Part shown: piece by piece, positions 13,922 through 58,869 of the stretch
Layout of the letters: the number at the start of each line of letters is the position of its first letter
How positions within the stretch are numbered: position 1 is the first letter of the stretch
IMG/VR virus record: IMGVR_UViG_3300033170_000307
Length of the DNA stretch: 64,000 nt
DNA from: an uncultured virus (IMG/VR IMGVR_UViG_3300033170_000307)
Taxonomy: Duplodnaviria > Heunggongvirae > Uroviricota > Caudoviricetes
Reading direction: 5' to 3' (one strand)
Position numbers and translations under genes: made by a program
Notes under the pieces: model-generated
Databases searched by the model: none
Told to the model about the DNA's origin: nothing
The model's input: only the letters and a program-made list of their open reading frames with translations

Positions 13922-14371
13922 CTACTGCTCCACTACCTTCTGGCACTCAACGATGATGCGGTTGACTTGCCCTATGCCCGATGCGGCGATGTTCACGACG
14001 GTGACGCGCTGGCCGTCAACCATGAGCTCCATGCCTTCCTTGAAGTACGGGCGCCACTGCGGCTCGACTTCAACGGTGCAGCTACCCAGGTCCACCCGGC
14101 CCGGCTCCGTGTACTTCAGGTCGTCAGTCTTCACCCAGCGCACAGCGGCCTGAATCTGTACCGGCTGTTCGGTGTGGCTCTCTCCAGTTCCATCGCAGGT
14201 CGGGCACAGTGGGTTCTTAGGGAAGCCAGTGGTCTGGTCTACCCCGCCACAGACTGGGCAGCTTGCTGTCGTGACAACCTGCACGGTGATGGGTCGGCCT
14301 ACGGCGCGCATCACATCATGGGTGTCCTGAGCAATCTGCGCCCTGTCTTCTGGTGAGAGCAGCATGTCCAT
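13922..14371 (-). CDS. Head closure/head-tail joining protein, putative
   Basis: 149 aa with CxxC...CxxC insert and a beta-rich C-terminus (LMVDGQRVTVVNI); synteny. Confidence 0.5.
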   Translation of the reverse strand: MDMLLSPEDRAQIAQDTHDVMRAVGRPITVQVVTTASCPVCGGVDQTTGFPKNPLCPTCDGTGESHTEQPVQIQAAVRWVKTDDLKYTEPGRVDLGSCTVEVEPQWRPYFKEGMELMVDGQRVTVVNIAASGIGQVNRIIVECQKVVEQ

Positions 14372-14382
14372 TGCTTACCTCG

Positions 14383-15417
14383 TTACGGATTAAGCTCGAA
14401 GATGGTGCTTATCATCACCTGGGGCTCGGGACGGTCGGCGTCGGCGGGCGGCGCGGTAGCCACGGTGTCCATGGCCGCAGCGCATACCTGGTCTTCCAAC
14501 TGCTGCTTGAAGTCCTTGAGCACCTGGGCCTCATTGCGCGGGATGCTGCTCCGCTTCATGGACAGGCCGGCGTCAGTGAAGTCGAAGCTGCGGCGCGCGT
14601 CCACCTGGACCTGCATTTCCAGGACCGCAATCTGGGCGGAGAGCATGAGCATGCCCAAGATAGTGGCGGGGTTGGTGTCTATGGTGGGTTGGCCATTGAC
14701 GTTGGATACTGCCAGGAGCCCACGGTTGGATAGCGCGGTACAGGCGCGCATTGCGGCCTGCGTGAGCTGCCCTCGGCTGTAGGTCTTGTGGAAGTAGCTG
14801 ACGATGATGCTGTCGCCGGCAGCGGGCGCCGCCGTGAGGTCGAAGACGCCGTTGTCGTAATCGGCGGTGTAGCCGTTGCTCTGGGCCCCCGCCGTGAAGC
14901 CGGTCTGGGTGCCGCTGGCCGCCATCTTCGTCACGGTTTCAGAGCCAGGCACCAGGTTATTCCCCATGACAGAGAAGCGCCTGTTGGTGCCGTTAGACGC
15001 GCCGAACGCCATTTCCCCCATGGCGGAATGGGGGCCATTGCCGATGGCTTCCTCCAAGAAGGGGATGATGTCGGCGATGAAGTATTGGTTGCCGCTCGGG
15101 GTGAAGACGTAGCTCTTGAGGATGACGAGCTCGGCGCTCATGGAGACGGCCGTGCCGGAACCGTTGAAGCCACTGAACGTCACATTGTAGGTGCCCTCTT
15201 CCCACTGCCCATGGTAGAAGGTGTTCTGGAAAGAGTAGACACCATCTGAGCCAGACCCCGTGCTGGTGAGCATGGACACCCCGCCGCGCTTGATGACCAC
15301 GTTGACGCCCTCGGCACCCCCGGCCGTCTTGTAGACCGGCACATTGACACCGGCTGTGGTGCGAAACGCCACTTCGAGGGTTGCGTTCTGTCCTTGGTAG
15401 ACGGTGATGGTTGCCAT
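14383..15417 (-). CDS. Head-tail adaptor with N-terminal beta domains, putative
   Basis: First structural gene after capsid/TnpB; helical C-terminus (FDFTDAGLSMKRS); GGAGG RBS. Confidence 0.5.
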   Translation of the reverse strand: MATITVYQGQNATLEVAFRTTAGVNVPVYKTAGGAEGVNVVIKRGGVSMLTSTGSGSDGVYSFQNTFYHGQWEEGTYNVTFSGFNGSGTAVSMSAELVILKSYVFTPSGNQYFIADIIPFLEEAIGNGPHSAMGEMAFGASNGTNRRFSVMGNNLVPGSETVTKMAASGTQTGFTAGAQSNGYTADYDNGVFDLTAAPAAGDSIIVSYFHKTYSRGQLTQAAMRACTALSNRGLLAVSNVNGQPTIDTNPATILGMLMLSAQIAVLEMQVQVDARRSFDFTDAGLSMKRSSIPRNEAQVLKDFKQQLEDQVCAAAMDTVATAPPADADRPEPQVMISTIFELNP

Positions 15418-15443
15418 TGCCGAACCCTCCGTAGTGTCTCTAT

Positions 15444-15454
15444 GAAGTATTCCG
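15444..15454 (-). promoter_or_regulatory. Late-promoter-like motif CGGAATACTTC
   Basis: Exact copy 27 nt upstream of the ATG at 15417. Confidence 0.7.
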
Positions 15455-15455
15455 C

Positions 15456-15566
15456 GATAGAGAAGCGGGGGCGTCTTGACGCTACCGCCTAAGCGGCTTC
15501 TCGCTTGCGCGAGCTACATGCCGGGCGTCCCCCGGAACTACCTGGAGCGATGACCCCAGGATACTT
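15456..15566 (-). ncRNA. TnpB omegaRNA (reRNA) scaffold/right end plus putative guide
   Basis: Hairpin-rich segment overlapping the tnpB 3' end and ending GCGTCAA (15476), the typical IS200/IS605 right-end tetranucleotide; following 20 nt GACGCCCCCGCTTCTCTATC would be the guide. The 5' boundary is uncertain. Confidence 0.65.
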
Positions 15567-16682
15567 GTAGGTCCAGACGTTAGGCACGTCACAGCCTGGA
15601 ACAAGCTCGCCGCGCATCCCGATGCAGCGGATGTTGGCGGAACCCACCACGTCACGATGGGCAGTAAAGCCGCAGTCACAACAGCGGTAGGTTCGCCGAC
15701 ACTTGTTCCGAGTTCCGCAAACGGGACACGTTTGGGAACTATACGCCTCGCCTACCGTAATGGCACCGGCCGTCTTGTAGTCGAGTTGCGTAATAATGCG
15801 AGAATTGCAGGCTTCTGAAACCTGTTGAGCCTGGCGTCTGCCGAGCTTCTGAGCGGCGTCATTGAACGGCTCGCCGACGTAACACTTAGCTCCTGGGAAC
15901 GCGTCCGCAATCGTGCGCGTAGCCTTGTGAGTGAGGTCTTTGACTCGGTTCTCAGACTTCTTCAGCAGCTTATGCTTGCGGCGCTGGAGCCGGCCATACT
16001 GACGGGAGCCCCGGTGACAGTTGGACTGCTTACTGCGGAGAGACGCCAGACGCTTAGCGCGCCATTGGACTGTGGCTTTTGCTTCGCGACCCGAGACGAG
16101 AACTGCGGTCTGGCCATCTGTGGCGGCGAGGAGCGTATTGACGCCGAGGTCTATGCCGAGAATGGGGCCGGTCGGGGTAATCTGGGCTTCACATTGGCAG
16201 ACCAAGATTACTGCACCATAGGTGAGTCTGGCCTCCATAAGTCGGCCAGGAAGAACAATGGTACGCGGGAGCGGGATGTAGAGATAGCCGGCAGAACCAT
16301 TGGACAACCGCAAGTTGGCATCCCGCACCACCGCGCCCTGGTTCGTATGCGGGACCCCATGGAACTCACGAGGCTTATGTGGGTAGTTGGCCTCTGGGTG
16401 CCCATTGCGGCGCAGGGTAGCTGCCGAAGCAAGTGCTTCGCAGAACTCGGATATGATTAGTTGCACGGACTGGCTATGGAGATTGGGGTACTTGCCTTTG
16501 GCCCATTTGCGCCAGCGCTTTTCTGACGGCCACTTGAGTTGGCGGCGACGGATGCGCAGATGGCGCTCTACCAAGTCGGACCAGAGTCGGCCAGCTTCAC
16601 GGCGGGCAGCCGTGAATGTAGCCCACTCGGCCTGCGAGCGGGGGAGCCAGTCAATGGTTACAGACCTGTAAGCGGTTGGCAA
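15489..16682 (-). CDS. tnpB: RNA-guided endonuclease TnpB (IS200/IS605 family)
   Basis: RuvC-I GIDLG, RuvC-II VGE, SSQTCPVCG...CCDCG zinc finger, RuvC-III HRDVVGSANI; D-E-D triad intact. No tnpA nearby. Confidence 0.92.
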   Translation of the reverse strand: MPTAYRSVTIDWLPRSQAEWATFTAARREAGRLWSDLVERHLRIRRRQLKWPSEKRWRKWAKGKYPNLHSQSVQLIISEFCEALASAATLRRNGHPEANYPHKPREFHGVPHTNQGAVVRDANLRLSNGSAGYLYIPLPRTIVLPGRLMEARLTYGAVILVCQCEAQITPTGPILGIDLGVNTLLAATDGQTAVLVSGREAKATVQWRAKRLASLRSKQSNCHRGSRQYGRLQRRKHKLLKKSENRVKDLTHKATRTIADAFPGAKCYVGEPFNDAAQKLGRRQAQQVSEACNSRIITQLDYKTAGAITVGEAYSSQTCPVCGTRNKCRRTYRCCDCGFTAHRDVVGSANIRCIGMRGELVPGCDVPNVWTYKYPGVIAPGSSGGRPACSSRKREAA

Positions 16683-16708
16683 TGGTTACAGACCTGTAAG
16701 CGGTTGGC
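16653..16708. repeat. 28-bp perfect tandem duplication at the tnpB start
   Basis: AATGGTTACAGACCTGTAAGCGGTTGGC at 16653-16680 and 16681-16708. Confidence 0.95.
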
Positions 16709-16718
16709 ATTGGTACTT

Positions 16719-16729
16719 GAAGTATTCCG
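16719..16729 (-). promoter_or_regulatory. Late-promoter-like motif CGGAATACTTC upstream of tnpB
   Basis: Exact copy 8 nt upstream of the ATG at 16710. Confidence 0.7.
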
Positions 16730-16748
16730 TACCGCAGGGTCCGGGCGC

Positions 16749-16776
16749 AAAAAAGGGGGCGCCTCGCGACGCCCCC
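16749..16776 (-). terminator. Rho-independent terminator after the major capsid gene
   Basis: GGGGGCGTC-GCGA-GGCGCCCCC followed by TTTTTT on the minus strand. Confidence 0.8.
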
Positions 16777-16807
16777 TCTCCTATCCTGCTGTCTGGCTCG
16801 TGGCTAA

Positions 16808-17764
16808 CTACGTGCCCACGATACCCTTGAGGAGGTACCGGGCATCCTTCACGAGGAAGCCGATAATCTCGCGGACCCGGACACCCACGCGCCAGTTGTC
16901 GGCGGCCCCGACCAGCTCTTCGGACTCGAAGGCGCCCTGGAGAGCCATGTTGAAGGCCTCTTCCTTGGCGCTCAGGTCGAACCCGTAGAGCTCGTACTGG
17001 GTCAGGCCCCAGTACGGGGTGAGCTGGACGCCCATCACGCGGTCAATGGCCCCGCTGCGGATGACGGCAGACTTCTCGGCGTTGCCGTACATGGAAGTCC
17101 AGTCAATGGTGTCGAGGAGGCGCGTCGGCGCGCCGTAGATGTCGGTGAGCTGCCGGCCCATCTGCTGGCGCGGGTTGGTGGGGTGTTCCATCATCCGGGC
17201 TAGCATGAGCTTCAGGAGCTGAGGCGAGAACGAGTCGTGACCCGCGGCCCCGTCATCGAGCTGCACGGCGGTGTTGGCGGCGGTGGATGCGGTCTTCAGG
17301 AGCGCCCAGCCGGAGGCTTCCTCGGCGGCGGCGATGGCCTCGCTGATGAGACGGAGGCACATGTTGACCACATCAATGCGTCCGTCCTGCTGCATGCGCT
17401 TCGGCCACTCCATGGAGGTGCCGAGCTCATACGTGGTCGGGTACGCGATGTCCGCGATGGGGAGCTGAGTGGGCTGGCTGTAGAGCTGCGGCACAGTCCA
17501 AATCTGGCTCACCAGTTCGTCCTTGTTGAAGACCGGGAACGAAATCTCCTGGCCGACCGAGAACGACTGGACGGAGAAGATGCCGCGCACGGTGCTCATG
17601 TCGTCCAGTCCGATGACGATGGGGTCAGTCAGACTGGCGGCCCACTTCCTGAACTCGTCGGGGCTGGCTACGGCGGCAGCGAGGCCCGCCTTGATGTCAT
17701 TGTCTGCCAGCTTCGGGTTGAAGAAGGAGGCGATGCGCTTGCGCTGGAAGGCTGTCTTGCTCAT
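16808..17764 (-). CDS. Major capsid protein (HK97 fold), putative
   Basis: 318 aa, strongly biased codons, GGAGGT RBS, downstream terminator, synteny after scaffold and decoration genes. Confidence 0.8.
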   Translation of the reverse strand: MSKTAFQRKRIASFFNPKLADNDIKAGLAAAVASPDEFRKWAASLTDPIVIGLDDMSTVRGIFSVQSFSVGQEISFPVFNKDELVSQIWTVPQLYSQPTQLPIADIAYPTTYELGTSMEWPKRMQQDGRIDVVNMCLRLISEAIAAAEEASGWALLKTASTAANTAVQLDDGAAGHDSFSPQLLKLMLARMMEHPTNPRQQMGRQLTDIYGAPTRLLDTIDWTSMYGNAEKSAVIRSGAIDRVMGVQLTPYWGLTQYELYGFDLSAKEEAFNMALQGAFESEELVGAADNWRVGVRVREIIGFLVKDARYLLKGIVGT

Positions 17765-17781
17765 TACTCATCTACCTCCTG

Positions 17782-18339
17782 TTAGGCCACGTAGCTGTAG
17801 TATGTAGCGTAGGGTCCCAGCAGAAGGATACGGATGTTTCCATCTGCCGTGGGGGCGCTCTCACAGACCGCCGCCATGAGGCCGCCTTCGGTCGCACTCG
17901 GGGTGGCGTTGTAGGCAGCGGTGAGCTTGCCTGCGTTCGTCACGTAGAGCGGATTGCTGGGGGCCGGGGTCCCGACGTAACACTCGTCGGGGATGATGCA
18001 GTGGGCCGGGCCGATGGTTACGGCGCACACGTCGCCTTCTTCGGCCTCGTGCGTCAGGCGGCGTCGGAAGTTACCTTCCGTCTTGGAGCCGACCACATAC
18101 CCGAGGGTAGAGGCGGCACGGGACGGGGTAACATCCTGGTTCAGGAGCCCGATGGCGGAAGTACCGTCGCTCAGGACGATGGGCTGGGCTTCGTCAATGT
18201 CAGCGACCGGAGAACCGGACTTGTACATGACGGCCAGACCCGCTTCCACCAAGGAGGCACCGTTGGGGATGAAGCCGCTCTCCGTCTTGAAGAACGGAGC
18301 CTCATACCCACCAAGAATCCTCTGGAACTTGCGAGCCAT
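17782..18339 (-). CDS. Capsid decoration/cement protein, putative
   Basis: 185 aa between scaffold and capsid; AIGLL and LYVTNAGKLT motifs typical of such proteins. Confidence 0.6.
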   Translation of the reverse strand: MARKFQRILGGYEAPFFKTESGFIPNGASLVEAGLAVMYKSGSPVADIDEAQPIVLSDGTSAIGLLNQDVTPSRAASTLGYVVGSKTEGNFRRRLTHEAEEGDVCAVTIGPAHCIIPDECYVGTPAPSNPLYVTNAGKLTAAYNATPSATEGGLMAAVCESAPTADGNIRILLLGPYATYYSYVA

Positions 18340-18434
18340 TGGTTACACCTCGTGCTCAGGATGCTCCGCCACTAAAGTGGCGGGTATTGGGAACGTCTAT
18401 CGGTCAAACGACTGGTTGCTGCCTTGGTCAGGTA

Positions 18435-19403
18435 CTACTCGTCGGACGACTTGAGCTGCTCGTGCCACAGCTTCTGGTAGCCCTGGGTCAGGGCCTCGTA
18501 GCTACCCTTCGCGGACACTTCGCCGACTGAGCCGCCCGCAGCGGTCTCGCCGCCAGGGCCACGGAAGACGAACATGCTCTGCGCGCTGCCGCCGCCGCCG
18601 CTGGTCACGGGGAGTTGGGCGCCGGCCGGTGGCTGCTGCTGGGAGGCCTGAGCCTCGCCGCCTTCGCCACCTTCGGTCTGGGCGCTGGCTTCCTCGTCCT
18701 GCGTCTCGGTCTCGGCCTGGGCCTCGCCACCCTCAGCGAGGGTCTCGGTCTGGGTCTCGGCCTGGGCCTGGGCTTCGCCGCCATCGGCGGGCGTCTCGGT
18801 CTGGGTCTCAGTCTCGGCCTGGGCCTCGCCGCCCTCAGCGGGGGTCTCGGTCTGGGTCTCGGTCTGGGTCTCGGTCTGGGCCTGGGCTTCGCCGCCATCG
18901 GCGGGCGTCTCGGTCTGGGTCTCAGTCTCGGCCTGGGCCTCGCCGCCCTCAGCGGGGGTCTCGTTCTGGGTCTCGGTCTGGGCCTGGGCCTGGGCTTCGC
19001 CGCCATCGGCGGGCGTCTCGGTCTGGGTCTCAGTCTCGGCCTGGGCGGTCTCCGTCTCGGCCTGGGCGGTCTCCGTCTCGGCCTGGGCGGCTGCGGCGGC
19101 GTCCTTCGCGGCCTGGATGAACGGCTGGGATGAAGCGACGTACTTGCCCCACATCTCGTCGCTCATGTCGTTGGCCAGGGCGCGCACATCGTCCGTAATC
19201 GGGAGCGGGTCGAGCTGGGCCAGGCGGGTCTCGGTGCGCTGGGCGGTCAGCAGTCCGTCGAGCTGGCTGCCGCGCGACTTGAGCTCTTCCTGGACCTCGC
19301 CGAGTCCGCTGGCGAAGGTTTCGAGCTTGTCGCCGATGGGCTTGATAGCGGTGGCGACGCTCTCGTCGAGCATCTGCTTGAAGTCTTCAGTGGTCATAGG
19401 CAT
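18435..19403 (-). CDS. Nested in-frame scaffold protein (MPMTTEDFKQ...)
   Basis: Internal late motif at 19426-19436, GAGGTG RBS and ATG at 19403; coiled-coil and acidic sequence. Confidence 0.7.
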   Translation of the reverse strand: MPMTTEDFKQMLDESVATAIKPIGDKLETFASGLGEVQEELKSRGSQLDGLLTAQRTETRLAQLDPLPITDDVRALANDMSDEMWGKYVASSQPFIQAAKDAAAAAQAETETAQAETETAQAETETQTETPADGGEAQAQAQTETQNETPAEGGEAQAETETQTETPADGGEAQAQTETQTETQTETPAEGGEAQAETETQTETPADGGEAQAQAETQTETLAEGGEAQAETETQDEEASAQTEGGEGGEAQASQQQPPAGAQLPVTSGGGGSAQSMFVFRGPGGETAAGGSVGEVSAKGSYEALTQGYQKLWHEQLKSSDE

Positions 19404-21008
19404 TGCCGTGTCACCTCTCGTGTCAGAAGTATTCCGTGTATCTGTGGCCTGTGTCAGAGAACTTTTGCCACTATCGCCCTTGAGCAACACCTTAGCGTGT
19501 GCAGCGAGGTGCGACTTCATGCGCTTCTTCATGCTGCTCGGGCACTGCGTCATCGGCAGACGCGCCAACGCGTTGCGCAGAGGGGCAAGGCCCACACTGC
19601 CATTCTCGTCGGACTTCTTGACCGAAGCATCATGATGGGGGAGCTTCCGCTTGGCGCGGGGAGCAGTGTTGCCGCCCTCGTCCTTCTTGCCGCCCGGCAG
19701 GAGACCGGCGAAAGCCGCGTCAGGAAGGTCGTTGACGTACTTCTGCGTCCATACGGCTGCGTCAGTGCTGTCGCTGATGATGAACATGCCGGCTTCGGCC
19801 GCCATCGCTTCATCGAGCTCGCCAACCAGTTCGCCTACATCGTCCAGGCCGTCAGCTAGTACCGTGACCCACTCTTCGATGCGCTGTCCTGCGATGTCGT
19901 GTGGGACGGTGTTGCTTTCGTGCTCGGACCAGGAGCCGTCCGGGTTCTTGATGAGGACTTGGAGAATGACGCCGGCGTCCGTCTCGGATACCTGCAGCTT
20001 GTACAGGTCGTTCTCGAAGCCCGACAAAGCAGACCCCTCAGCCGGCTCGGGGCTGACGGAACTCTGCTGCTCGATGACATCCACGATGGGGGTTATATCC
20101 AGTGGTTCGGTGCCGGGGTCGTAGTTGCTGCAAGTCGCCGACACGGGGTCGAAGTTCAGGCAGGCCAGGCCGTCCGCGCTCGGCTTCGCCATGGCGCAGT
20201 CCCCGTAGCTGAGGGGGCAGATGTTGGAAATGGAGTTCGCGGCGCGGCGCTCGGCCACGGTCTCGCGCAACTCTTCGATGCGACGGGAGACATCGCTAGC
20301 CGTAGCCAGACTGCCGCGCGACAAGACAACCGGCTCGGGCGAGACGCGGATGATGCGGGACGCCACCGATGCGTCGTAGGTCTTCTCGGCGGCCTTGCCA
20401 TCGTTGTCAACGTACTTGACGGAGAGGATGCGCGCGTTCGTGTCGGCGGGGACCTTGACCAGCGCGGCGCCGCTGAAGAAGACGCGAGAGTCATCCTCCG
20501 CACCACCGAGGAGCCGCACGACGGGCTTGCCGTCGTAGAGCGCGCCCATGTAGGGTGAGAGCTCTTTCCAGCGTTCACTCTTCTCGGTGTACGTGCGCCC
20601 CTTGTAGGAGAGCGCCACCTTATCGAAGTAGCACTCCATGCTGACGCGCCAGTTGTTGCCCTCTTCCTCGTTGTTCTGCAGGTCGTGCGCGAGGCAGTAG
20701 AAGATGTCGCGGTAGATGACGGCGGCGCCGACGATGAAGACCTGCCCGTCCTGCTCGATGAGGGCGGCGTCGTAGGTGTGGCCCACGATGTCGGTGTCCC
20801 AGTGCTCGATGTTGAACGGGCTGTGGATGACGGACTTGAATGAGTTGGCCAGGGTGGCCGGGGTCCAGCTATCGCTATTGGCGTTAATGGCCGGCAGCGC
20901 ATGACACAGGACATAACTCATGTAGAGCTGCGTCCAGTTGTCGGCCACTACCGGGGTCAGGTCAATGGGTGCCGATAGCACTTTGATGTGCTGCTGTGTT
21001 TCGGGCAT
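18435..21008 (-). CDS. Prohead protease fused to scaffold (likely start MPETQQ at 21008)
   Basis: INANSD, FNIEH...IVGH, WRVSMECYF and FSGAALV..PAD motifs of herpes/HK97-type maturation proteases; GAGGT RBS before 21008. Confidence 0.75.
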   Translation of the reverse strand: MPETQQHIKVLSAPIDLTPVVADNWTQLYMSYVLCHALPAINANSDSWTPATLANSFKSVIHSPFNIEHWDTDIVGHTYDAALIEQDGQVFIVGAAVIYRDIFYCLAHDLQNNEEEGNNWRVSMECYFDKVALSYKGRTYTEKSERWKELSPYMGALYDGKPVVRLLGGAEDDSRVFFSGAALVKVPADTNARILSVKYVDNDGKAAEKTYDASVASRIIRVSPEPVVLSRGSLATASDVSRRIEELRETVAERRAANSISNICPLSYGDCAMAKPSADGLACLNFDPVSATCSNYDPGTEPLDITPIVDVIEQQSSVSPEPAEGSALSGFENDLYKLQVSETDAGVILQVLIKNPDGSWSEHESNTVPHDIAGQRIEEWVTVLADGLDDVGELVGELDEAMAAEAGMFIISDSTDAAVWTQKYVNDLPDAAFAGLLPGGKKDEGGNTAPRAKRKLPHHDASVKKSDENGSVGLAPLRNALARLPMTQCPSSMKKRMKSHLAAHAKVLLKGDSGKSSLTQATDTRNTSDTRGDTAMPMTTEDFKQMLDESVATAIKPIGDKLETFASGLGEVQEELKSRGSQLDGLLTAQRTETRLAQLDPLPITDDVRALANDMSDEMWGKYVASSQPFIQAAKDAAAAAQAETETAQAETETAQAETETQTETPADGGEAQAQAQTETQNETPAEGGEAQAETETQTETPADGGEAQAQTETQTETQTETPAEGGEAQAETETQTETPADGGEAQAQAETQTETLAEGGEAQAETETQDEEASAQTEGGEGGEAQASQQQPPAGAQLPVTSGGGGSAQSMFVFRGPGGETAAGGSVGEVSAKGSYEALTQGYQKLWHEQLKSSDE
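18690..19090 (-). repeat. Coding tandem repeat AQAETETQTETPA(D/E)GGE
   Basis: About six long imperfect units plus shorter AQAETET units in the scaffold C-terminus. Confidence 0.95.
19426..19436 (-). promoter_or_regulatory. Intragenic late-promoter-like motif CGGAATACTTC
   Basis: Exact copy inside the protease ORF, about 23 nt before the internal ATG. Confidence 0.7.
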
Positions 21009-21033
21009 TAAATGACCTCTTCTGGAAGAAGTT

Positions 21034-21143
21034 CGGTGCAGGACGTAAGACATGTGACGCTGCCGCTTGTGCGACTTCTCGCTTTCACGAGCTACTTGCC
21101 GGGCGCCCCCCGGAACTACCTGGAGCTTGACCCCAGGATACTT
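21034..21143 (-). ncRNA. Orphan TnpB omegaRNA/right-end copy with a different guide
   Basis: 21054-21143 aligns by eye to 15476-15566 with about 12 differences in 91 nt; ends GCGTCAC, followed by ATGTCTTACGTCCTGCACCG. Confidence 0.75.
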
Positions 21144-21326
21144 TTGGGCTTTATTGTGCCCACACGCTGAGAGTTTTGCGCGACAGACGCTTCTCTGTCG
21201 CAACCTGATACGCTCAAGTGTCAAGGTGCATACGACACCATCCCGTTATGGTACGGGCCAACCCGAAATCTCGTTGAGACTTCGCGCGCCGTAGGCGGAG
21301 ACGCATCCGGTGCAAACTCCACAGTG

Positions 21327-21337
21327 GAAGTATTCCG
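21327..21337 (-). promoter_or_regulatory. Late-promoter-like motif CGGAATACTTC
   Basis: Exact copy between portal and protease. Confidence 0.7.
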
Positions 21338-21371
21338 TCATTTCTCGGTCGTGTCAGGCAAGAACGGCCAC

Positions 21372-22967
21372 TTATGCCTGTGGAGTGGGTTGGTCGCCTG
21401 TCGGCTGCCGGCCCGGAGGGTAGTCCTGGCCGGGGCCGCTCGGCGGCCGTCCGGGGTCCTGCGCCATCTTGGTCTGGGTCTGCTGAGAGATGAAGAGACC
21501 CTTCTTCTGGAACTCAAGCTCTTCCTCAAGACGGGCGATTTCCGTGGCCGGGTCGTGGCCCGCCTCTTCCAACGCTGTCTGGCCCGAGATGAGGCCCAAA
21601 TGCCGGAGACCGAGTACGATGGCCTTGAAGCGGTCCTGTGGTCGCAGGTCCACCTTGTCGAACACGATGTGGACGCGTTCCTTGATGCCGAACTTCTGGG
21701 CTACGGCGTTGAGCTCGCGCTCCCAGAACGCCTTGACTTCGAGCCGGGCAACATCCAGGCGCCGCAACAGGACTTCGACCTGGACCCACTGGTTGCTGTA
21801 GCCGCTGCCGCCCCCGCCCGCCGATGCGTCAACGAGGAACATGGGGACGCCGATGCCAGCATAGAGCTCGGCGTTGACGGCCTCGTACTTGTCGCGACCG
21901 AGAATCTCACCGGCCGGTGGGCGCAACATCTGGACATTGAGCGTGTGGTTCCAGTACACGGTGAAGCTGCGCTTGTCCGTCTCGAACGCGCGCTGGATTT
22001 CGCGAATCTGCTTCACGTTCGCCGGGTACTTGTCGTTGCCCACCGTGACCAGCACGATGCAGTTCACCATGTCCTCGGCGGTCGCTTCGTCCATGAGCTG
22101 CATGATGCGCTTGGTGCGGTACGAGAAGCTGGCGCGCAGCAGGAACGGCACGGGGTAGCGCGAGTAGGGTTGCTTCTTGCGGTCAATGAAGTTGACCACA
22201 TTGGGGTCGAAGACGTAGTAGTCCTTGCTCCCCACGCTGAACGGCTTCATCCACGGCGGTGGCTTGTACTCGCTCTCGTTCTGCAGGCCCATGTAGGTGA
22301 GGTTCTGTGGCTTGAGAACGTCGGCCGGCACGCCCACCTTGATGATGTTGCTGGTGTCCTGTGCGGGCTGAAGCATGTCATCGAACTGCACATTGAGGGC
22401 GCCGAGCACGGCGCAGTGGGCGGGGTTGTACAGGGTGTAGAACCTGTTCTTGCCGTCTACCTCGCCCAGGCGGATGGGGACGGCGCGGCCGAACAGGGTA
22501 TGGTCGCGGATGGACCAGCGCATCAGGTCGTTGAGGCCGATGGTCTCCACCCAGTTGTAGAAGTCGGCGACATTGCCGCTGCTGCGCTTCTTGTTGGTAG
22601 CTTCCTTGCCGGAAAGCACGACGCGGCAACCGGCAGAGATGAGGTCGCACAGGGTGTCAATGCTGGTGCCCACGACGGCATCCCAGTAGTAGAGCTTCAG
22701 CACATAGTCGCAGCGCTTCTGCCACTCCAAGAACGGGTCGCCGCCAGTGGAAGAAATTGGAATCTGGAACAGGCCGGTGGCGTCGGTGCCGCCCCCGGAG
22801 TATGAGGTGTTGATGGTGTCGAAGAGCCCGGCGCGCGCTTTGCCGCCAAAGAGATTGGTCCCTTGGCCCCCCATCGCCAACTCCCGATGGCCGGCGAGAA
22901 CGTCCTGCCGCAGGAGCATCTTGAATTGCCCCTGGCCGGTCTGCTTGGCTGTGATGATTTCCGCCAT
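21372..22967 (-). CDS. Portal protein
   Basis: 531 aa directly after TerL; YYWDAVVGTSID, DRKKQPYSRYPVPFL, GLISGQTALEEAGHD...E portal-like C-terminus. Confidence 0.85.
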   Translation of the reverse strand: MAEIITAKQTGQGQFKMLLRQDVLAGHRELAMGGQGTNLFGGKARAGLFDTINTSYSGGGTDATGLFQIPISSTGGDPFLEWQKRCDYVLKLYYWDAVVGTSIDTLCDLISAGCRVVLSGKEATNKKRSSGNVADFYNWVETIGLNDLMRWSIRDHTLFGRAVPIRLGEVDGKNRFYTLYNPAHCAVLGALNVQFDDMLQPAQDTSNIIKVGVPADVLKPQNLTYMGLQNESEYKPPPWMKPFSVGSKDYYVFDPNVVNFIDRKKQPYSRYPVPFLLRASFSYRTKRIMQLMDEATAEDMVNCIVLVTVGNDKYPANVKQIREIQRAFETDKRSFTVYWNHTLNVQMLRPPAGEILGRDKYEAVNAELYAGIGVPMFLVDASAGGGGSGYSNQWVQVEVLLRRLDVARLEVKAFWERELNAVAQKFGIKERVHIVFDKVDLRPQDRFKAIVLGLRHLGLISGQTALEEAGHDPATEIARLEEELEFQKKGLFISQQTQTKMAQDPGRPPSGPGQDYPPGRQPTGDQPTPQA

Positions 22968-22976: not shown

Positions 22977-24662
22977 CTAGCGACGCTGGCCGAATACGCC
23001 CGTACTGACTGAGCCACCCGGCAAGGGGTCGCCTTCGCTCGTGGTTTGCAGAGTTACGCGCTTCGCAGCGTAGTTCCCCAGACAGGTCACTATCGCGCGG
23101 TCTTTGGGCTGGTTGCCCGGTGTGTCGAAATGCAGGGTGCCGTTGTTGTTGGCGCTCATCTGGATAGCGCGAAGTTCGCGCTGGGCGGCCATGATGTGGT
23201 CCTGAGCTTGCTCGGCCGCTTCGAGTAGAGGGCCCCCGGTGACGAACGGGTCAACCTTGCCCGCGAACTGGATGCGCTTAGTTTCCAGGCCGCTCTTCAG
23301 GCCCATGTAGAGCTCTTTGTTGACTTCGGTGCTTTGCGCCACCGGGTCCAGGATGTTCTTGGGGTCGCCGGGGTTCTCCTCATCGAAGAGCCCGAACTGC
23401 CCGTAGGGAATCACCACGTTTGAGAGCGGCGGCATGAAGCCTTCCTTGTCCCCCGGCTCGCAGAGCAGGTCCACGAGCGCCAAGCCACCGCCTCCTCTAT
23501 CTATGCAGATGTGAGCCACGTTGAACCTGGCGGCGATGCCCCCGATGATGTCGCGCATGACGGGGGTGCTGAGCCCTTTGTCCGCGAAGCAGTAGACCAT
23601 GGCCCACAGGCCGGGCTCGACTTCTTCGAACACCGAAATCGCGAAGTAGTCACCCGTGCGGGCGGGGTCAACAGCCATCACATAGCGCCGGCCAGGGACC
23701 GGGGCCAGGCGCACGGACAGTTGCGGGTTCACGCACTGCTGGATGAGGCTGGCGTTGAAGAAGCCGTCGCTGTCGGCAGGGAAGTAGGCGCACCACTCCA
23801 TCAGGAACTCGATGACGCCCATCGTCTTCATGGCGTCATTGATGACGGAAGCGGACATGAACCCTTCAGGCAGGTCGCGGTAGTCGAACACGTAGAGCCC
23901 ATAGGCCGGGTCGTACTCGGGGTTGTGGCTGCCATCCTCAAGGAACTCTGCGGTGTACCTCAGGTACTGCTTGTACTTCTCATAGAAGTGATTGAACTGG
24001 TAGTAGGCAGAAGACGACAGGATGAGGCGGTTGCTCCGGGACAGCCGGTCGAAGTCAATGCCGGCTTCGCGGATTTCGGCTTCGTATCGCTTCAGGCGCG
24101 CCAGGCGCACTTGGGCAGCCGGGTCAGCAGCCGTGGCCGCCAGCGGCTTGATAACCAGGTCAATGACCTCTGGCGTAATCTGCGCCGCCTCGTCCATGAG
24201 GATGCTGTTGGCGCGAGCGCCGCGAATCTTGTTGCCATCACCCAGCGGCAGGGCAAAGACCATGCTGCCGTTCCTGAGCTTCCAGATGGACTGGTCAGCC
24301 AGGTTCGATGGGCCGCCGTTTCTCATCGTGCAGCGCTGCAGGAACGGGCTCTTGTTAATGGCACGCTCGATTTCGGCGAAGACGAACTTGGCCTGACGGA
24401 ACGACGGGCCGACGATGCCGACCTTCCAGCCCGAGTACAGGATGGCTTCCAGGATGGCCATGCGGCTGAGGTCGAACGTCTTGGTGGTACCACGACCACG
24501 CGCGTTCATGATGAACGTCTTGTTCCACGAGTCCCGGTAGAAGAACCGCTGGTGCGGCATGTACTCATCGCCGATGAGAATGGTGCCGGCGAATACGGGG
24601 TCGCTTCTGAACAGCCTCAGCAGAGCAATGTCGTTCTTGGTGAGTGGGCTAAGACGGGGCAT
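22977..24662 (-). CDS. terL: Terminase large subunit
   Basis: Walker A RGRGTTKT, IRGARANSILMDEAA Walker B, RNase H-like AVDPARTGD and KDR. Confidence 0.92.
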   Translation of the reverse strand: MPRLSPLTKNDIALLRLFRSDPVFAGTILIGDEYMPHQRFFYRDSWNKTFIMNARGRGTTKTFDLSRMAILEAILYSGWKVGIVGPSFRQAKFVFAEIERAINKSPFLQRCTMRNGGPSNLADQSIWKLRNGSMVFALPLGDGNKIRGARANSILMDEAAQITPEVIDLVIKPLAATAADPAAQVRLARLKRYEAEIREAGIDFDRLSRSNRLILSSSAYYQFNHFYEKYKQYLRYTAEFLEDGSHNPEYDPAYGLYVFDYRDLPEGFMSASVINDAMKTMGVIEFLMEWCAYFPADSDGFFNASLIQQCVNPQLSVRLAPVPGRRYVMAVDPARTGDYFAISVFEEVEPGLWAMVYCFADKGLSTPVMRDIIGGIAARFNVAHICIDRGGGGLALVDLLCEPGDKEGFMPPLSNVVIPYGQFGLFDEENPGDPKNILDPVAQSTEVNKELYMGLKSGLETKRIQFAGKVDPFVTGGPLLEAAEQAQDHIMAAQRELRAIQMSANNNGTLHFDTPGNQPKDRAIVTCLGNYAAKRVTLQTTSEGDPLPGGSVSTGVFGQRR

Positions 24663-53473: not shown

Positions 53474-53512
53474 AAAAAGGGCCCGCGCCGAGAGGCGCGG
53501 GCCCTTTCGTTT
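53474..53512. terminator. Bidirectional terminator
   Basis: AAAAAGGGCCCGCGCC-GAGA-GGCGCGGGCCCTTTCGTTT at the convergence point. Confidence 0.85.
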
Positions 53513-53800
53513 GTGTAGCCAGGTGTTGGCGTTAGAGGCTGAGCTGCTGCTGGGGGTGGGTGGGGATGATTGCGGATGGGGCATGAACTGAACGGCAATC
53601 ATCCTGGAGCCAAGTTTCCTGAACGGTCTTGGCGTTAGAGCCCAGCCCCTGCCCCCGCTGCTGTGCGCAGGATTGCGGGTTGGTCTTGATATGAACGGCC
53701 CGTCTCTCGGGCCCATGTTTTCCTGTCTACACTCTACGGCGCACGATTGCGGGTAGGAATAGCAACGGGCCGGCCCGAAGGCCGGCCCGTTCGTCCGTGG

Positions 53801-54142
53801 TTAGGCGACGGCCTCCGCGTTGGCGCCGAGTGCGATAGCGGCCCGTTCGTGGGGATAGCGGCCGAAGTTGGCATTGAAGACTTCGGCTTGCGCGCGGATG
53901 AAGCTGAGGGCGCGCGGCCCGGTGAAGTTGGGGTATCGACCGAAGGTGCGCCGATACCAGTTGCGATTGGCGTGGTCATCGCCATAGGGCGCGACGGCGA
54001 GGAGGTCCAGCGGCACGCCGGTGTAGACTTCGGCGACGGGTTTCGGGTGATTCTTCGACGGCCCCTGCTGGTACAGGTCACCCTTGCGGAAATTGACCTG
54101 CGCGTTCGGCTTGTAGTACACTTGGTTCGGGTTCGTGCGCAT
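53801..54142 (-). CDS. Array hypothetical protein
   Basis: Motif A upstream; hairpin at 53764-53791 downstream. Confidence 0.7.
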   Translation of the reverse strand: MRTNPNQVYYKPNAQVNFRKGDLYQQGPSKNHPKPVAEVYTGVPLDLLAVAPYGDDHANRNWYRRTFGRYPNFTGPRALSFIRAQAEVFNANFGRYPHERAAIALGANAEAVA

Positions 54143-54305
54143 AGCCTATCACTTCCCTATGGTGTGTTGTACGTCCGTCCTACACTACTGTGCGCATGAT
54201 TGCGGGCCGACCTCCTCGGCCCTACAGAAGAGAGTTTAGCATAGCAGAAGAGTTGTGTAAACTACTTTCTTACACTACGTATGCGCACGATTGCGGCCCG
54301 GTCGT

Positions 54306-54365
54306 CTACCCAAAGAGTGCGGCGAGTCCTAACATCACGAGTCCGATGAGTGCGAGTGCTATCAT
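54306..54365 (-). CDS. 19-aa hydrophobic peptide MIALALIGLVMLGLAALFG
   Basis: GGAGGT RBS; flanked by two motif A copies. Confidence 0.6.
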   Translation of the reverse strand: MIALALIGLVMLGLAALFG

Positions 54366-54560
54366 AGGCGACCTCCGAAGTGTAGTTGGTACACTACCCG
54401 GCGCACGATTGCGCGGCCCTTGGCGTTAGAGCCCAGCCCTGGCTCACGGCGGCGCTGGATGATTGCGTTTGTGACTTTCGCTGAACGGCACTGAACAGGG
54501 AGCCATGGAATCAGGAGGGGCCGAAGTCCCTCCCTACATCACTGGGCGCACGATTGCGGG

Positions 54561-54824
54561 CTACTCTGCGTCGAGCTCTACCCGTCCGGTCATATCGGTG
54601 AGCTTGCGCTGGCGCAGGATTGCGATGCGCGTCTGCGCGTGCTGGGCGCGCAGGGCGGCGACCGCCTGCGTGAAGGCGACAATGAGCACGGCGGCGGCCA
54701 GGGCGCAGCAGCCGGGGATGATGTCGCCCCGCTGCAGGTCGTGGGCCTTGAGGAATTGGTAGTAGTGGACCGAGAAGACACCGACCAGTGCTGTGATGAT
54801 GTGGCTGATGATGAGTCGTGTCAT
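54561..54824 (-). CDS. Array membrane protein (MTRLIISH...)
   Basis: GGAGG RBS; two hydrophobic helices; stop abuts motif A. Confidence 0.65.
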   Translation of the reverse strand: MTRLIISHIITALVGVFSVHYYQFLKAHDLQRGDIIPGCCALAAAVLIVAFTQAVAALRAQHAQTRIAILRQRKLTDMTGRVELDAE

Positions 54825-55779
54825 GCGTCTGCCCTCCGGCATGTTTTTGGTGCGTACACAGCTATGCGCACGATTGCGGGGGCGGGGGCGGGGGCGACGG
54901 TGCCCCCGGCTCCCCGGCACGACTTCCATACGCTTCCGCCACCACTTACCCCGCAGGGCCTCTAGAAGGCGGGTGGCGGACAACGTAGCAACACTCAGCG
55001 CATAGGCATCACCTTTGGTAGGGGGAGTTGCCGGAGGTTCGCGTTCGCTTACTCCGTACACTACTCTGCGCACGATTGCGGCCCTACTGCCGGGGCGGCG
55101 GGTAGCAGTAGGACATCAGGTTGAGCAGCAGCGCGACTATGTACATCGGCATCACCTCACACGACTGGGCGCACGATTGCGGCTCACTCACCTGCCGGGA
55201 AGAGCCACGCGAGGAAGTCGAGTGTCTTCTCCAGACAGACGGGCAGCATCACCAGCAGCCACATAGGGCATCACATCATGCCATTGTGCGCATGATTGCG
55301 GCCGGCCGCAGTGCCTGGCGTTAGAGCCCAGCCCCTGCCCCCGCTGCTCTGCGCACGATTGCGGTTAAGACTTCGATTGAACGGCTGAACAGAAGAGCCA
55401 AGGGAAAGCAGGTGTGAGCCTTCCCTTGGCCCTCCGGTGTACCTGTGTGCCTTCCCCGGAGAGGGCGGAGGCGTTGAGTTAGGCGCCTCCGGCAGCCGCT
55501 AGTCTGCGATGCCGGGACGGTGGGTAGCTCACCTTTGCAGGTGCCCGAACCTCTCTAGAACCCACCAAGTTCATCTTGGGATAGGCAGCAGGATTACTCT
55601 GTACACTACTCTGCGCAGGATTGCGGGTGGCTTTGGCGCTGGTCTGGCGCCGCTTTTGAGCCCGCTTTTCGCCCGATTGAGACGGCGAGCGTCTCACGCG
55701 ATGTTTCTGGGCGCCACCCGCTTCATACACTACTGTGCGCATGATTGCGGGGGAGGGGTTGTCTCCCCCGCGCACCTGT

Positions 55780-56172
55780 CTACATACTGTCGGCGGCGAC
55801 CATTCCGGTCGTGGCCACGCCGAAGCGCGCCTGCAAGACCTCGGCGTGCTTCTCTTGCGCGCGGCGCTGGTCGTGCTCCACGGTGCGGCGGTACCCGGTG
55901 TCATGCTTCATGCGATAGTCGTGCAGCGCCTGCCACGCGGTCTTGTAGACCGCTTCCGTTTCGGCGGTGCGGTTGCGCATCATGGCGTGGAAGGCGCGGA
56001 CTTCCGCCTGCTTGAGGTCGTGCACCGGGTCCGCTTCCGCTTCCGCCTGCCGGGCGGCGAGGTGGCGGCGCTTGGAGGCGGTGAGCCGAGCGCAATACTG
56101 CTCAAACTCCCCCTCCTCATACTGGAAGTTGTGACGGGAGTCGGGCTTGAGGGTCTTCTGCACGCGTTTCAT
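55780..56172 (-). CDS. Array hypothetical protein
   Basis: GAGG RBS; motif A on both sides. Confidence 0.7.
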   Translation of the reverse strand: MKRVQKTLKPDSRHNFQYEEGEFEQYCARLTASKRRHLAARQAEAEADPVHDLKQAEVRAFHAMMRNRTAETEAVYKTAWQALHDYRMKHDTGYRRTVEHDQRRAQEKHAEVLQARFGVATTGMVAADSM

Positions 56173-56413
56173 GTTGCCTCACCTGTTAGGTGGTATTGGT
56201 CAGGTTGACACCTGACACTACTCTGCGCACGATTGCGACACAATTACCCCTTGGGATGATTGGCTCTGGCGTTAGAGCCCGGCGCCCCGGCACGGCAGGG
56301 GCACGATTGCGGATGTGTGCAATCGATTGAACGGTCTTGAACTGGGACCCATGAAATGGAAAAGCCCCCGGCTCTCACCGGGGGCCCTTCCGCAATCATC
56401 TAGCCGCGCCGCA

Positions 56414-56560
56414 TCAGCGTGCCTCCTTGGGTATGAGTGGCTGCACACGCCACTTCGGGCGCGTGATGTTCTGGTTCGGGCGGTTCCACGCGCAGCCAAC
56501 GCTGCAGCCGACTTGGCCGCAGCGCGGGCACTTGCCTTCGTCACTCTGCCTGTAGGGCAT
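56414..56560 (-). CDS. Array small Cys-rich protein (48 aa)
   Basis: GGAGGT RBS; CPRC...C...C. Confidence 0.6.
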   Translation of the reverse strand: MPYRQSDEGKCPRCGQVGCSVGCAWNRPNQNITRPKWRVQPLIPKEAR

Positions 56561-56591
56561 ATCCAACCTCCAGAGTAGCTGGGTTCTTACA

Positions 56592-56888
56592 CTACTCTGC
56601 GCAGGATTGCGGCTTCGCCCGCCAGTGCCTGTCGCGCACAAGCGTGCGCATACGCAGGGCGGGGTGCTCCGTGATGCGTTCGTCTACCATCCGCGCTTCT
56701 TCGTCGCTGGCAGTGAAGACCAGGACCTCCGGCTGATTCTCCCAGCCGTGCTCGTGCTCCCAGGTGGGGTTCGGCCTCTTCAGGCCGGCCAGCAGGACCT
56801 CCCAGTCCACCGGCTCCTGCACCGGGAAGGTGATGCCCGTCTTGTCATAGCCGGTGCTGCCCGTCGCCCGTATGTATCGCCGTCTCAT
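56592..56888 (-). CDS. Array hypothetical protein (98 aa) ending inside motif A
   Basis: GGAGGT RBS; C-terminal PQSCAE* is encoded by the motif. Confidence 0.7.
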   Translation of the reverse strand: MRRRYIRATGSTGYDKTGITFPVQEPVDWEVLLAGLKRPNPTWEHEHGWENQPEVLVFTASDEEARMVDERITEHPALRMRTLVRDRHWRAKPQSCAE

Positions 56889-56952
56889 GATGCAACCTCC
56901 ACAGCGTAGTGGGTTCTTACACCACTCTGCGCACGATTGCGGGGCAGAGCCC

Positions 56953-57393
56953 CTACCCGTTGGGGTCGGGGGGCTCCACCTCTGCCGGGATGATTTCGCA
57001 GTAGACCTCATCGAGTTCGCCCTCGTCATTCAGTTCGTCGGGGCGGTGCTCCTGAATCCACTCCTCCATGATTCTGTAGCACTCCTGTTCGGCGTGCGCC
57101 GGCATCACGTTGCTGCAGAAGACCGCGACCGTGAGCTTGACGTAGCCGCTGCCGATGTGGAACATATAGGCGGGGTCGGGCTCGGGGAAGTCGGGCGTCT
57201 CGCTGGCGCGCTGCTTGAGCCATTCATCGCGCGCGAGATTGCGGCGCCGGGCGTACTCTGCGCCGCGCTCCCATGAGGGCAGTTCGTCCAGGTCCTTGCC
57301 GCCAGGGAAGGGTACTTCGTCGCCGGCCTGATTCAGGTAAATCATGGCGACCGCCTGCCGCGCTTCGTCGCTGTGCAGTCCGGGTGTGGGCAT
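56953..57393 (-). CDS. Array acidic hypothetical protein
   Basis: GGAGGT RBS; motif A on both sides. Confidence 0.75.
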   Translation of the reverse strand: MPTPGLHSDEARQAVAMIYLNQAGDEVPFPGGKDLDELPSWERGAEYARRRNLARDEWLKQRASETPDFPEPDPAYMFHIGSGYVKLTVAVFCSNVMPAHAEQECYRIMEEWIQEHRPDELNDEGELDEVYCEIIPAEVEPPDPNG

Positions 57394-57447
57394 GTGAGAC
57401 CTCCAGAAGTGAGTGGTTACACTCCTATGCGCACGATTGCGGCCGCC

Positions 57448-57786
57448 CTACGACGGCGGCCAGATGTCGTAGCAGCGGGTATTGCCGCAGCGCCCCACAA
57501 TGAGGTGCAGGGGAGCGAGCGCCGGGTATTCGGGGAAGCCGTAGAGCGTGCAGAAGACCGCCCGCATGACATCGGGCGTGCCACGGCGCAGCTTCTGATT
57601 GCGCTTCGTCGCTTCGGGGTGCTCCCAGACCTGTTTCTCCTCAGGCGTCCACGTATGGCGGCCCGACTCGATGCGGAAGCCCGCGTTCGTCAGAGCATCA
57701 ATCGGGTGGATGATGTGGCCGGGCGCCAGTTCTTCTGTCTGCTTGAGTGCGGCCAGCGCAGCCGCGAGCGCTTCGTCGTAGGACAT
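57448..57786 (-). CDS. Array hypothetical protein (MSYDEAL...)
   Basis: GGAGGT RBS; motif A on both sides. Confidence 0.7.
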   Translation of the reverse strand: MSYDEALAAALAALKQTEELAPGHIIHPIDALTNAGFRIESGRHTWTPEEKQVWEHPEATKRNQKLRRGTPDVMRAVFCTLYGFPEYPALAPLHLIVGRCGNTRCYDIWPPS

Positions 57787-58169
57787 GATGCGACCTCCAC
57801 AGTGTAGTGGGTACACTCCTCTGCGCACGATTGCGGGGCACACGCCGACAGCCACTCTTTCTCCCCGTGCCTCTGCTTCGCCTCATGAGGGGCACTCCAC
57901 AGAGCGAACACTTGGGAGCGAGAGGATTGGCCTGCCGGCGTCTGCCTCGCCATCTGGCGTTAGACCTGGGCCCCTGGTCCACACGTCTGCGCATGATTGC
58001 GGGTCGGATTACGATTGAACGGCAACTGAACGGGGACCTAGAAAACTGCGACCGGACGGCGCACTGGGCATTGCTGCTCCCGCTGCTACGCCCCTGTAGC
58101 CGGCTACGGGGTTCGCTGCTGTTACTCGGGATGCGCCGTCCGCTCACATCTCTATGCGCACGATTGCGG

Positions 58170-58496
58170 CTACCCCTCGTCGCCGAGGGGCACCACTATC
58201 ATCACGCCACTGAGCACGAGCACCGGGGTGGGCTCGGGCACGCCGTAGACGTGGGCATACGTCTGCAGCGCGGGGTCGGTGCTCAGCAGGCTCACGTCGC
58301 GTACCCAGTCCTTGCCACTCTCACCGATGATAGTGCAGAGGTGGGCGCAGCACTGCACGGGGCAGGTGAAGCGCGCGGCGTTGCAGCGCACGCACACTTG
58401 GTGCATTCGGTCGAGCTTGGCCAGTTCGTCAACGTCCGGGCCGTTCAGGTAGCCGTGGTTCCTGACAATCTTCTCCAGTAGCTTCTGCAGGGGCAT
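58170..58496 (-). CDS. Array hypothetical protein
   Basis: GGAGGT RBS; stop abuts motif A. Confidence 0.7.
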   Translation of the reverse strand: MPLQKLLEKIVRNHGYLNGPDVDELAKLDRMHQVCVRCNAARFTCPVQCCAHLCTIIGESGKDWVRDVSLLSTDPALQTYAHVYGVPEPTPVLVLSGVMIVVPLGDEG

Positions 58497-58568
58497 GATG
58501 CGACCTCCCGGTATGGGGTTGGGGGCAGGTCACCCTGCCCCCTATACTACTCTGCGCACGATTGCGGG

Positions 58569-58793: not shown

Positions 58794-58869
58794 GGGTGCG
58801 ACCTCCATAGATGTGATGGATACGTGGGGAGCACTGCGGCTCCCCACGATACTCTGCGCACGATTGCGG

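Follow-up and report, generated by a model that had tools for sequence, protein, structure and literature searches.

The closest described counterparts of the locus studied here come from TnpB biology. In ISDra2, the omegaRNA scaffold lies over the 3′ end of tnpB, in the segment that encodes the C-terminal tail of the protein; it measures 116 nt and folds into four stems plus a pseudoknot in which the bases immediately preceding the guide take part, and sequence further 5′ is described as dispensable (Nakagawa et al. 2023, PMC10097598). PATEs, as presented in a preprint, retain a right end with a complete guide scaffold, have no nuclease gene and often encode omegaRNAs that need the TnpB of other elements in trans (Meers et al. 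2023, PMC10055086). TldRs, which are TnpB-derived RNA-guided transcription factors, combine a TnpB-family protein and a guide outside transposition, and offer a model for domestication (PMC10705468). Two phage systems are also related: in the strain-variable case of cyanophage A-1(L), one phage has tnpB and its close relatives do not, with related copies in host genomes (bioRxiv 10.64898/2026.02.14.705889), and the TnpB of Thermus Lalka phages may work with more than one guide, the guides lying in repeat-spacer (CRISPR-like) arrays beside tnpB (bioRxiv 10.1101/2024.08.14.607894).

We analyzed a stretch of 64,000 nt (the window), which is part of a 215-kb metagenome contig from an uncultured virus. 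The genes of the region all lie on the minus strand, in the order terminase, portal-like gene, 857-aa gene, two small genes, tnpB and capsid-like gene. One omegaRNA scaffold (copy 1) coincides with the 3′ end of tnpB and a second, orphan one (copy 2) lies in the intergenic region upstream of the 857-aa gene (Table 1). The window resembles ISDra2 (PMC10097598) in the placement of copy 1 over the coding end of tnpB, in the several stems and in the guide-adjacent pseudoknot, while it differs in the scaffold length (90-91 nt versus 116 nt) and in the 5′ strand of the pseudoknot, which in the window is the loop of the second hairpin; there is no detectable RNA sequence similarity, and the protein similarity (E 2e-12) is confined to residues 157-354. 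Copy 2 shares with the PATEs the scaffold-bearing right end without a nuclease gene, but it has no demonstrable left end, is single in 64 kb and sits in the leader of a phage late gene. In contrast to the TldRs, the window TnpB keeps its RuvC triad, the guides match their own flanks only, and nuclease and guide are not co-inherited. The cyanophage report describes no nuclease-less guide scaffold, and the window TnpB is just 50-64% identical to its relatives (38% for one, L017). Unlike the guides reported beside tnpB in the Thermus phages, the second scaffold of the window is 5.5 kb away and forms no array. Protein-less omegaRNA elements are already in print; the present case draws its interest from the phage setting and the tnpB polymorphism.

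Table 1. Positions of the features discussed, and metagenomic contigs compared over copy 2 (window coordinates).
Feature	Position	Strand	Remarks
Large terminase	22977-24662	minus	PHROG 2, E 2e-25
Portal-like gene, 531 aa	21372-22967	minus	
Late promoter-like site	21327..21357	minus	-35 CTGACA 21357-21352; -10 AATACT 21334-21329, inside CGGAATACTTC
Intergenic region, 363 nt	between portal-like gene and 857-aa gene		holds copy 2
Stretch between late promoter and scaffold, 183 nt	21144..21326	minus	hairpins 21201-21180 and 21161-21146; TTGACA 21224-21219
OmegaRNA scaffold copy 2 (orphan)	21054..21143	minus	four helices and pseudoknot, ends GUCAC; R1 56.7 bits, E 1.4e-12
Guide position, copy 2	21034..21053	minus	ATGTCTTACGTCCTGCACCG
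Late gene, 857 aa	18435..21008	minus	ORF, ATG at 21008; copy 2 in its ~314-nt leader
28-nt tandem duplication, tnpB start	16652..16714	minus	Tandem Repeats Finder: period 28, 2.2 copies, 97% matches
tnpB, 397 aa from TTG (16682)	15489..16682	minus	Pfam PF07282, PF01385; PHROG 506
OmegaRNA scaffold copy 1	15476..15566	minus	overlaps tnpB 3′ end, ends GUCAA; R1 62.2 bits, E 5.3e-14
Guide position, copy 1	15456..15475	minus	GACGCCCCCGCTTCTCTATC; abuts the upstream side of the capsid-like gene's late motif
Capsid-like gene, 344 aa	14383-15417	minus	
Contigs of run X3	20485-21397		3 other letters
Contigs of run X5	19002-21500		49 other letters and 22 gaps
Contigs of run X7	21045-21257		9 other letters (depth 2.2)
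Contigs of run X10	21031-21394		1 other letter

The likeness of copy 2 to copy 1 is far beyond chance. When aligned, the two are identical in 79 of 91 columns (86.8%), with 11 substitutions and one 1-nt gap; a repeat search returned a 72-nt ungapped core common to both (88%, family D17), and a 20-mer that they share is present at two sites in the window and no more, where 100 shuffles give an expectation of 0. Searching the window by tblastn with 18 family proteins located a single tnpB, 5.5 kb from copy 2, while at the copy 2 locus the only TnpB trace is a 33-residue echo of the C-terminal tail; the segment has no minus-strand ORF except a stop-free read-through into the 857-aa gene, and beyond this echo no TnpB homology. 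Copy 1 overlaps the tnpB 3′ end, with the TAG stop codon falling in the loop of helix 4, and copy 2 neither overlaps nor abuts it. The original prediction, made by eye, had anticipated most of this: an identity of about 87% to the tnpB 3′ end without an accompanying tnpB ORF, hairpins reading CTCGC-GCAA-GCGAG and GCCGC-TTAG-GCGGT in one copy against CTCGT-GAAA-GCGAG and GTCGC-ACAA-GCGGC in the other, an end in TCAC (copy 2) instead of TCAA (copy 1), a different 20-mer after copy 2 (ATGTCTTACGTCCTGCACCG, 21053-21034), differences that mostly spare the structure, and one TnpB with two scaffolds behind late motifs. All of these readings agree with the sequence; each scaffold belongs to a late transcription unit preceded by one and the same motif. 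In front of copy 2 this motif, CGGAATACTTC, occupies 21327-21337, and the scaffold starts 184 nt downstream of it. No Rfam family reached its gathering score anywhere in the window, and an exact 20-mer of the scaffold had 0 matches in IMG/VR.

To place both copies in a family, we used the relatives of the window TnpB, which comprise two viral contigs and 15 loci in bacterial assemblies, 10 of these 15 being labelled as Chloroflexota groups. Sixteen of the 17 show the 50-64% protein identity given above, the 38% being that of a broken copy. Downstream of the protein core, the relatives have in common a nucleotide module made of AAGUAUC, helix 1, GUAGUUC, helix 2 (loop GGACAC), CAnGUAGCUC with helix 3, GAAGC, helix 4 and then AGUGUCAC; at the right end of copy 2, helix 4 is followed by AGCGUCAC where the family consensus has AGUGUCAC. 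A covariance model (R1) was built from 14 relatives, window sequences being left out, as were two loci whose scaffolds are interrupted by repeat units (L004, L005) and one cut by a contig end (L014). This alignment comprises 26 pairs and is 90.7% paired, with 20 pairs changed on both sides. Scanning the 64 kb with R1 found exactly two copies, both full length, at 62.2 and 56.7 bits, the next match reaching 14.6 bits; copy 2 covers model positions 1-99 of 99.

Adding the two window copies gave a 16-sequence fold, pseudoknot included, in which 95.5% of the cells pair and double changes occur in 22 of 30 pairs; its covariation score was reached by 0 of 500 shuffles, and slid controls pair at 35-43%. 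The pseudoknot joins the helix 2 loop to the five nucleotides before the last two bases of the scaffold, and it is found, covarying, in 16 of 16 rows: GACAC:GUGUC in most and GAACC:GGUUC in one relative (L002), while the window copies have GACGC:GCGUC (copy 1) and GGCGC:GCGUC (copy 2). All 26 pairs of the fold are standard in copy 2, the pseudoknot included, where one of them is G-U. Copy 2 is a true omegaRNA scaffold of the same family as the tnpB-linked copy, with the whole fold kept. Single-sequence folds further place a hairpin upstream of AAGUAUC in most relatives and in copy 2, at a varying distance that makes it not reliably alignable. A well-supported fold with a pseudoknot for the guide RNA of this Chloroflexota-associated TnpB clade is a useful by-product of the analysis. 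In the two loci set aside for their repeat units, which belong to one Ardenticatenaceae genome, the scaffold is broken after helix 3 by units of the GTCCCCTACGGGGGA type (L004 3618-3800, L005 3615-3800).

We then asked if copy 2 is intact or decaying. From copy 1 to copy 2, four of the 11 substitutions fall within the 52 paired bases (one in the pseudoknot, A>G; one in helix 3, C>U; two in helix 4, C>U and U>C), and all four leave standard pairs in copy 2. In a simulation, 11 random substitutions broke no pair in 0.13-0.77% of trials (P 0.0013-0.0077, depending on transition bias). The pairs are thus kept beyond random expectation, which indicates that the divergence between the copies ran under structural constraint; since this constraint may date from a time when both copies lay in complete elements, it does not prove present use. 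By the ISDra2 scaffold architecture, in which sequence further 5′ is dispensable, the 90-nt copy 2 plausibly holds the complete scaffold. These observations bear on the possibility that copy 2 is an inert relic, a leftover of a past insertion that is intact only through youth or luck, is never loaded and does nothing except lengthen the leader. Speaking against a fully healthy scaffold, each window copy scores lower with R1 than any of the 14 family members (73.8-112.4 bits), and helix 4 has five pairs in the window copies and up to nine in the family. In line with a relic, the score of copy 2 is the lowest of the 16 aligned sequences, and copy 2 has altered an A that all 15 others retain, with a G-U pair as the outcome. 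Copy 2 is moreover the single orphan in 64 kb, no left end could be demonstrated for it, its guide has no independent target, and tnpB is missing from the phage in 3 of the 3 DNA runs compared (see below). Against this stand the 11 substitutions and one indel that break none of the 26 pairs, at variance with a decaying remnant devoid of structural conservation, as well as two findings from bacterial genomes presented next. We regard the relic as unlikely, although it keeps appreciable weight.

Other members of the family also occur without tnpB. R1 gave 2, 16, 13, 17 and 2 matches in five genomes carrying the family, and in three of those genomes tnpB gave 64, 94 and 85 matches, a tally rather than a copy number. 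Three strong R1 matches that we fetched from Chloroflexota-type genomes (L064, L065 and L066, 78-85 bits) show no homology to TnpB in the 2 kb preceding them, two other fetched stretches (L063 and L067) being left out because contig ends cut them. The three do have left-end-like sequence and, upstream of the scaffold, share a non-coding domain of about 150 nt. The first finding concerns the 5′ edge of the conserved module: the likeness between copies 1 and 2 ends within a few bases of it, and the family match of these three bacterial tnpB-less elements begins there too, which argues against a relic. The second finding, the many cognate tnpB copies held by family-carrying genomes, offers a possible source of protein for an orphan scaffold and argues in the same direction. 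The ~150-nt domain may be an added RNA module of mini-elements; one hairpin in it appears to covary (CCGGGAG...TCCCGG versus CCGATGG...CCATCGG; L064 1800-2166, and L065 and L066 on the reverse strand) and is followed by GUAAAACA. A narrow scaffold pattern run on IMG/VR returned 40 loci, of which three had an R1 match and none was an orphan: one lies on the contig of a relative already in the set (L044, on the L001 contig), one is tnpB-linked (L039), and the third (L036) has no TnpB and was judged a false match.

If copy 2 came in as part of a miniature element, a left end might be found in the 183-nt stretch that separates the scaffold from the late promoter. Neither the phage collection nor the loci that we fetched contained a match to this stretch, and two profile HMMs of family left ends did not match it. 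Local alignment to left ends gave weak likeness, with the score reached by 0 of 200 shuffles for L001 and by 2 of 200 for L011, the other 12 loci being unremarkable; the best likeness is TTGACA plus spacer, a 15/17 match to L011 that is reached by those 2 of 200 shuffles. By eye, TCAA/CTAC followed by cgagatttcgggttgg, a hairpin and TTGACA is arranged as in L011, L013 and L064, whereas the profile HMMs found no match. Judging from the letters, the stretch may be a left-end remnant. The family has an internal tnpB promoter, TTGACA-17-TATAAT, a few bases before the ATG, and the TTGACA at 21224-21219 resembles the -35 box of that promoter, not a target motif; for the latter, our own reading of six left flanks suggests YTAC as the candidate target-adjacent motif of the clade. 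The last seven nucleotides of guide 2 (TGCACCG, 21040-21034) are repeated at 21314-21308, and this direct repeat is a possible junction of a block insertion. An alternative put forward originally, a nonautonomous MITE with TTGAC and a hairpin as its left end, is half retained: a nonautonomous element comes closer to the evidence, but its proposed TTGAC(A) looks like a -35 box and the left end was missed by both profile searches.

The motif CGGAATACTTC has seven exact occurrences in the window, all on the minus strand, against 0.39 expected even when one mismatch is allowed, and five occurrences in a relative phage (L019). A promoter scan of 21357-21329 reads it as part of a sigma-70-like site (CTGACA-17-AATACT), which places copy 2 within the ~314-nt leader of the 857-aa gene, the scaffold ending 45 nt before the ATG. 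This proximity, a leader fold (328 nt folded) more stable than shuffled sequences (z -2.65, 1 of 100 shuffles as good) and the presence of the insert in 4 of 4 runs compared would fit an exapted leader, that is, a structured 5′ UTR acting in cis on the stability or translation of the 857-aa mRNA, perhaps switched by TnpB near the ribosome-binding site. We give this a very slim chance: the homologous gene of the relative phage has a 26-nt leader without a scaffold, the structure is tied to the ribosome-binding site by proximity alone, and at about 96-99% identity the compared strains differ too little for selection to become visible.

Two features within the 857-aa gene were noted in passing. 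A late motif lies inside the ORF (19426-19436; L019 3372-3382) with an in-frame-looking ATG about 21 nt further on, an arrangement kept in the relative phage that suggests, from the sequence, either an internal start or a late gene nested in the ORF. The second feature is an array of 51-nt tandem repeats (18642-19099) whose length differs between strains: X3 has gained 12 nt, X5 has lost 21 nt, and X7 and X10 have 3-nt deletions.

Concerning the nuclease, D178, E271 and D344 of the window TnpB align with the RuvC residues of ISDra2 TnpB (chains 8bf8 and 8h1j), so the RuvC triad is present at the level of sequence. The start of the gene is disturbed: a 28-nt duplication puts the ancestral ATG (16710) out of frame, leading to a 19-codon ORF, and the remaining start is an in-frame TTG (16682) with no obvious ribosome-binding site. 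Contigs of X10 cover 16036-16325 and 16464-16754 of the tnpB region with no difference, the latter confirming the duplication independently. Translation of the phage TnpB is doubtful because of this duplication, and the nuclease would either have been knocked down recently or be translated in an unusual way. Upstream of tnpB lies phage intergenic sequence with the phage motif, not a left end of the family type, and the best TnpB match in the phage collection has 29% protein identity.

Among the 17 relatives and the window, the RuvC-II position reads VGEPF in eight sequences (window included) and VGKPF in eight, such that the canonical catalytic glutamate is absent from half of the TnpB relatives. 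On the plus strand, a 211-aa ORF antisense to tnpB (15825-16460) has tblastn matches on the antisense strand of two relatives (L001 and L002 tnpB), which probably are a mirror effect of the conserved sense frame; the cyanophage report claims an antisense product of another tnpB (bioRxiv 10.64898/2026.02.14.705889).

Whether nuclease and orphan scaffold belong together can be assessed from related phages. Neither 14000-22000 nor the 363-nt intergenic region had a nucleotide counterpart in the phage collection, which contains no close relative of the window, and IMG/VR searched with the portal-like and capsid-like proteins gave no relatives. The relative phage L019 is syntenic over 11 kb, with a portal that is 59% identical; the portal of another relative, represented by protein P0002, is 69% identical. 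About 70 nt separate its portal-like gene from its homologue of the 857-aa gene, with the motif 26 nt before the ATG; this intergenic region holds nothing comparable to copy 2 or to the 183-nt stretch, the phage has no R1 match, and the 135-nt intergenic region before its capsid-like gene contains no tnpB. Since L019 lacks both copy 2 and tnpB, both elements appear to have been gained in the lineage of the window; the comparison shows that copy 2 is absent there, in a phage too diverged to give the exact empty site.

Closer strains were found in metagenomes. Part of 15300-21500 is contained in 20 listed runs from 15 studies (sludge, wastewater and digesters), four of which were compared: X3, X5 and X7, which are DNA runs from three studies, and X10, an RNA library. 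In the contigs of 3 of 3 DNA runs, 15420 is joined to 16808, with 88 other letters replacing 1387, and this joint lies inside contigs of 4557 nt (X5) and 4269 nt (X7). As the 88 letters do not align, this allele is more than the window with the element cut out. The tnpB-less phages are about 99% identical to the window on both sides of the joint. In this allele (15421-16807 replaced), the breakpoints fall at the stop codon of a 318-aa gene and 3 nt before the capsid-like ATG; separately, CGGAATACTTCA occurs on both flanks of the tnpB cassette (16729-16718 and 15454-15443). Copy 2, in contrast, is covered in 4 of 4 runs compared, none of those strains being without it (Table 1); the X10 contigs over 21031-21394 come from an RNA library, where DNA carry-over is possible, and do not show ends or strand. 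Near-identical phages without tnpB hence keep copy 2, which means that the second guide is inherited separately from the nuclease; a strain-variable nuclease beside a fixed orphan scaffold argues against a co-evolved two-guide system.

The guides themselves point the same way. Each is the flank of its own scaffold. Allowing up to three mismatches, guide 2 had no match in the window beyond its own site, and guide 1 had one three-mismatch match, which is at chance level. Guide 2 had no match in IMG/VR, and among 401 genomes of the Chloroflexota phylum it had two two-mismatch matches versus one for a reversed control, again chance level.

That prediction had read the locus as a domesticated multi-guide system, in which one TnpB and two guides behind late promoters cut co-infecting relatives at intergenic sites among the head genes. 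Part of it stands, namely the true scaffold with its structure spared and the late promoter. The intact scaffold, the placement of both scaffolds in late units behind the same motif, the intact RuvC triad and the phage-type sequence upstream of tnpB are all compatible with it, and the circulation of tnpB+ and tnpB- alleles in similar habitats means that targets could exist. What does not stand is the pairing, as copy 2 is inherited without tnpB; the duplication disrupts the start of the nuclease gene, each guide is just the flank of its scaffold as in any IS, the window holds no further scaffolds, L019 has neither element, and no second target of either guide occurs in the window, which speaks against a dedicated two-guide system. 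We leave this reading a slim chance.

The account that we prefer, holding it with a little better than even confidence, is that copy 2 is an IS200/IS605 right-end module without tnpB. It would be a solo right end or a miniature element of the PATE kind, could be loaded in trans and would have a selfish role, rather than being a part of a co-inherited two-guide system. On this account, the module would have been inserted in an ancestor of this phage, downstream of the late promoter and ahead of the ribosome-binding site that serves the 857-aa gene, and become fixed there. The scaffold would be transcribed passively within the late mRNA leader and loaded in trans by a cognate TnpB, which could be the phage's own in tnpB-carrying strains or that of related host copies. 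In relatives without the insert, the resulting complex would recognize the element's own insertion site in its unbroken state, and repair following recognition would copy the insert into them, an ordinary selfish role. Copy 2 is, in this sense, an ordinary consequence of IS200/IS605 biology in an unusual place. If the scaffold is used, the phage carries the cheap RNA half of an RNA-guided nuclease whose protein is encoded elsewhere, which would bear on the spread of TnpB elements between phages and hosts and on competition between related phages. The natural tnpB+/tnpB- polymorphism in wastewater and sludge communities provides a setting for studying TnpB homing.

A further step beyond the right-end module, to which we assign a small chance, is that the phage itself profits by borrowing the TnpB of its host, whose relatives contain many cognate tnpB copies, or of a co-infecting strain with tnpB. 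Its late transcript would double as a guide for the cutting and conversion of competing relatives without the insert, at a site just upstream of a morphogenesis gene that they need. Such a gene-drive-like device for marker exclusion would cost the phage about 270 nt, and translation of the 857-aa gene could be held back by the same binding.

At some distance from this locus, positions 53500-63700 contain more than 20 copies of a ~25-nt motif (plus strand ...TACACTACTCTGCGCACGATTGCGG), spaced every 100-1400 nt and in some cases next to GC-rich hairpins, which look like separate phage promoters or operator sites of the early region.
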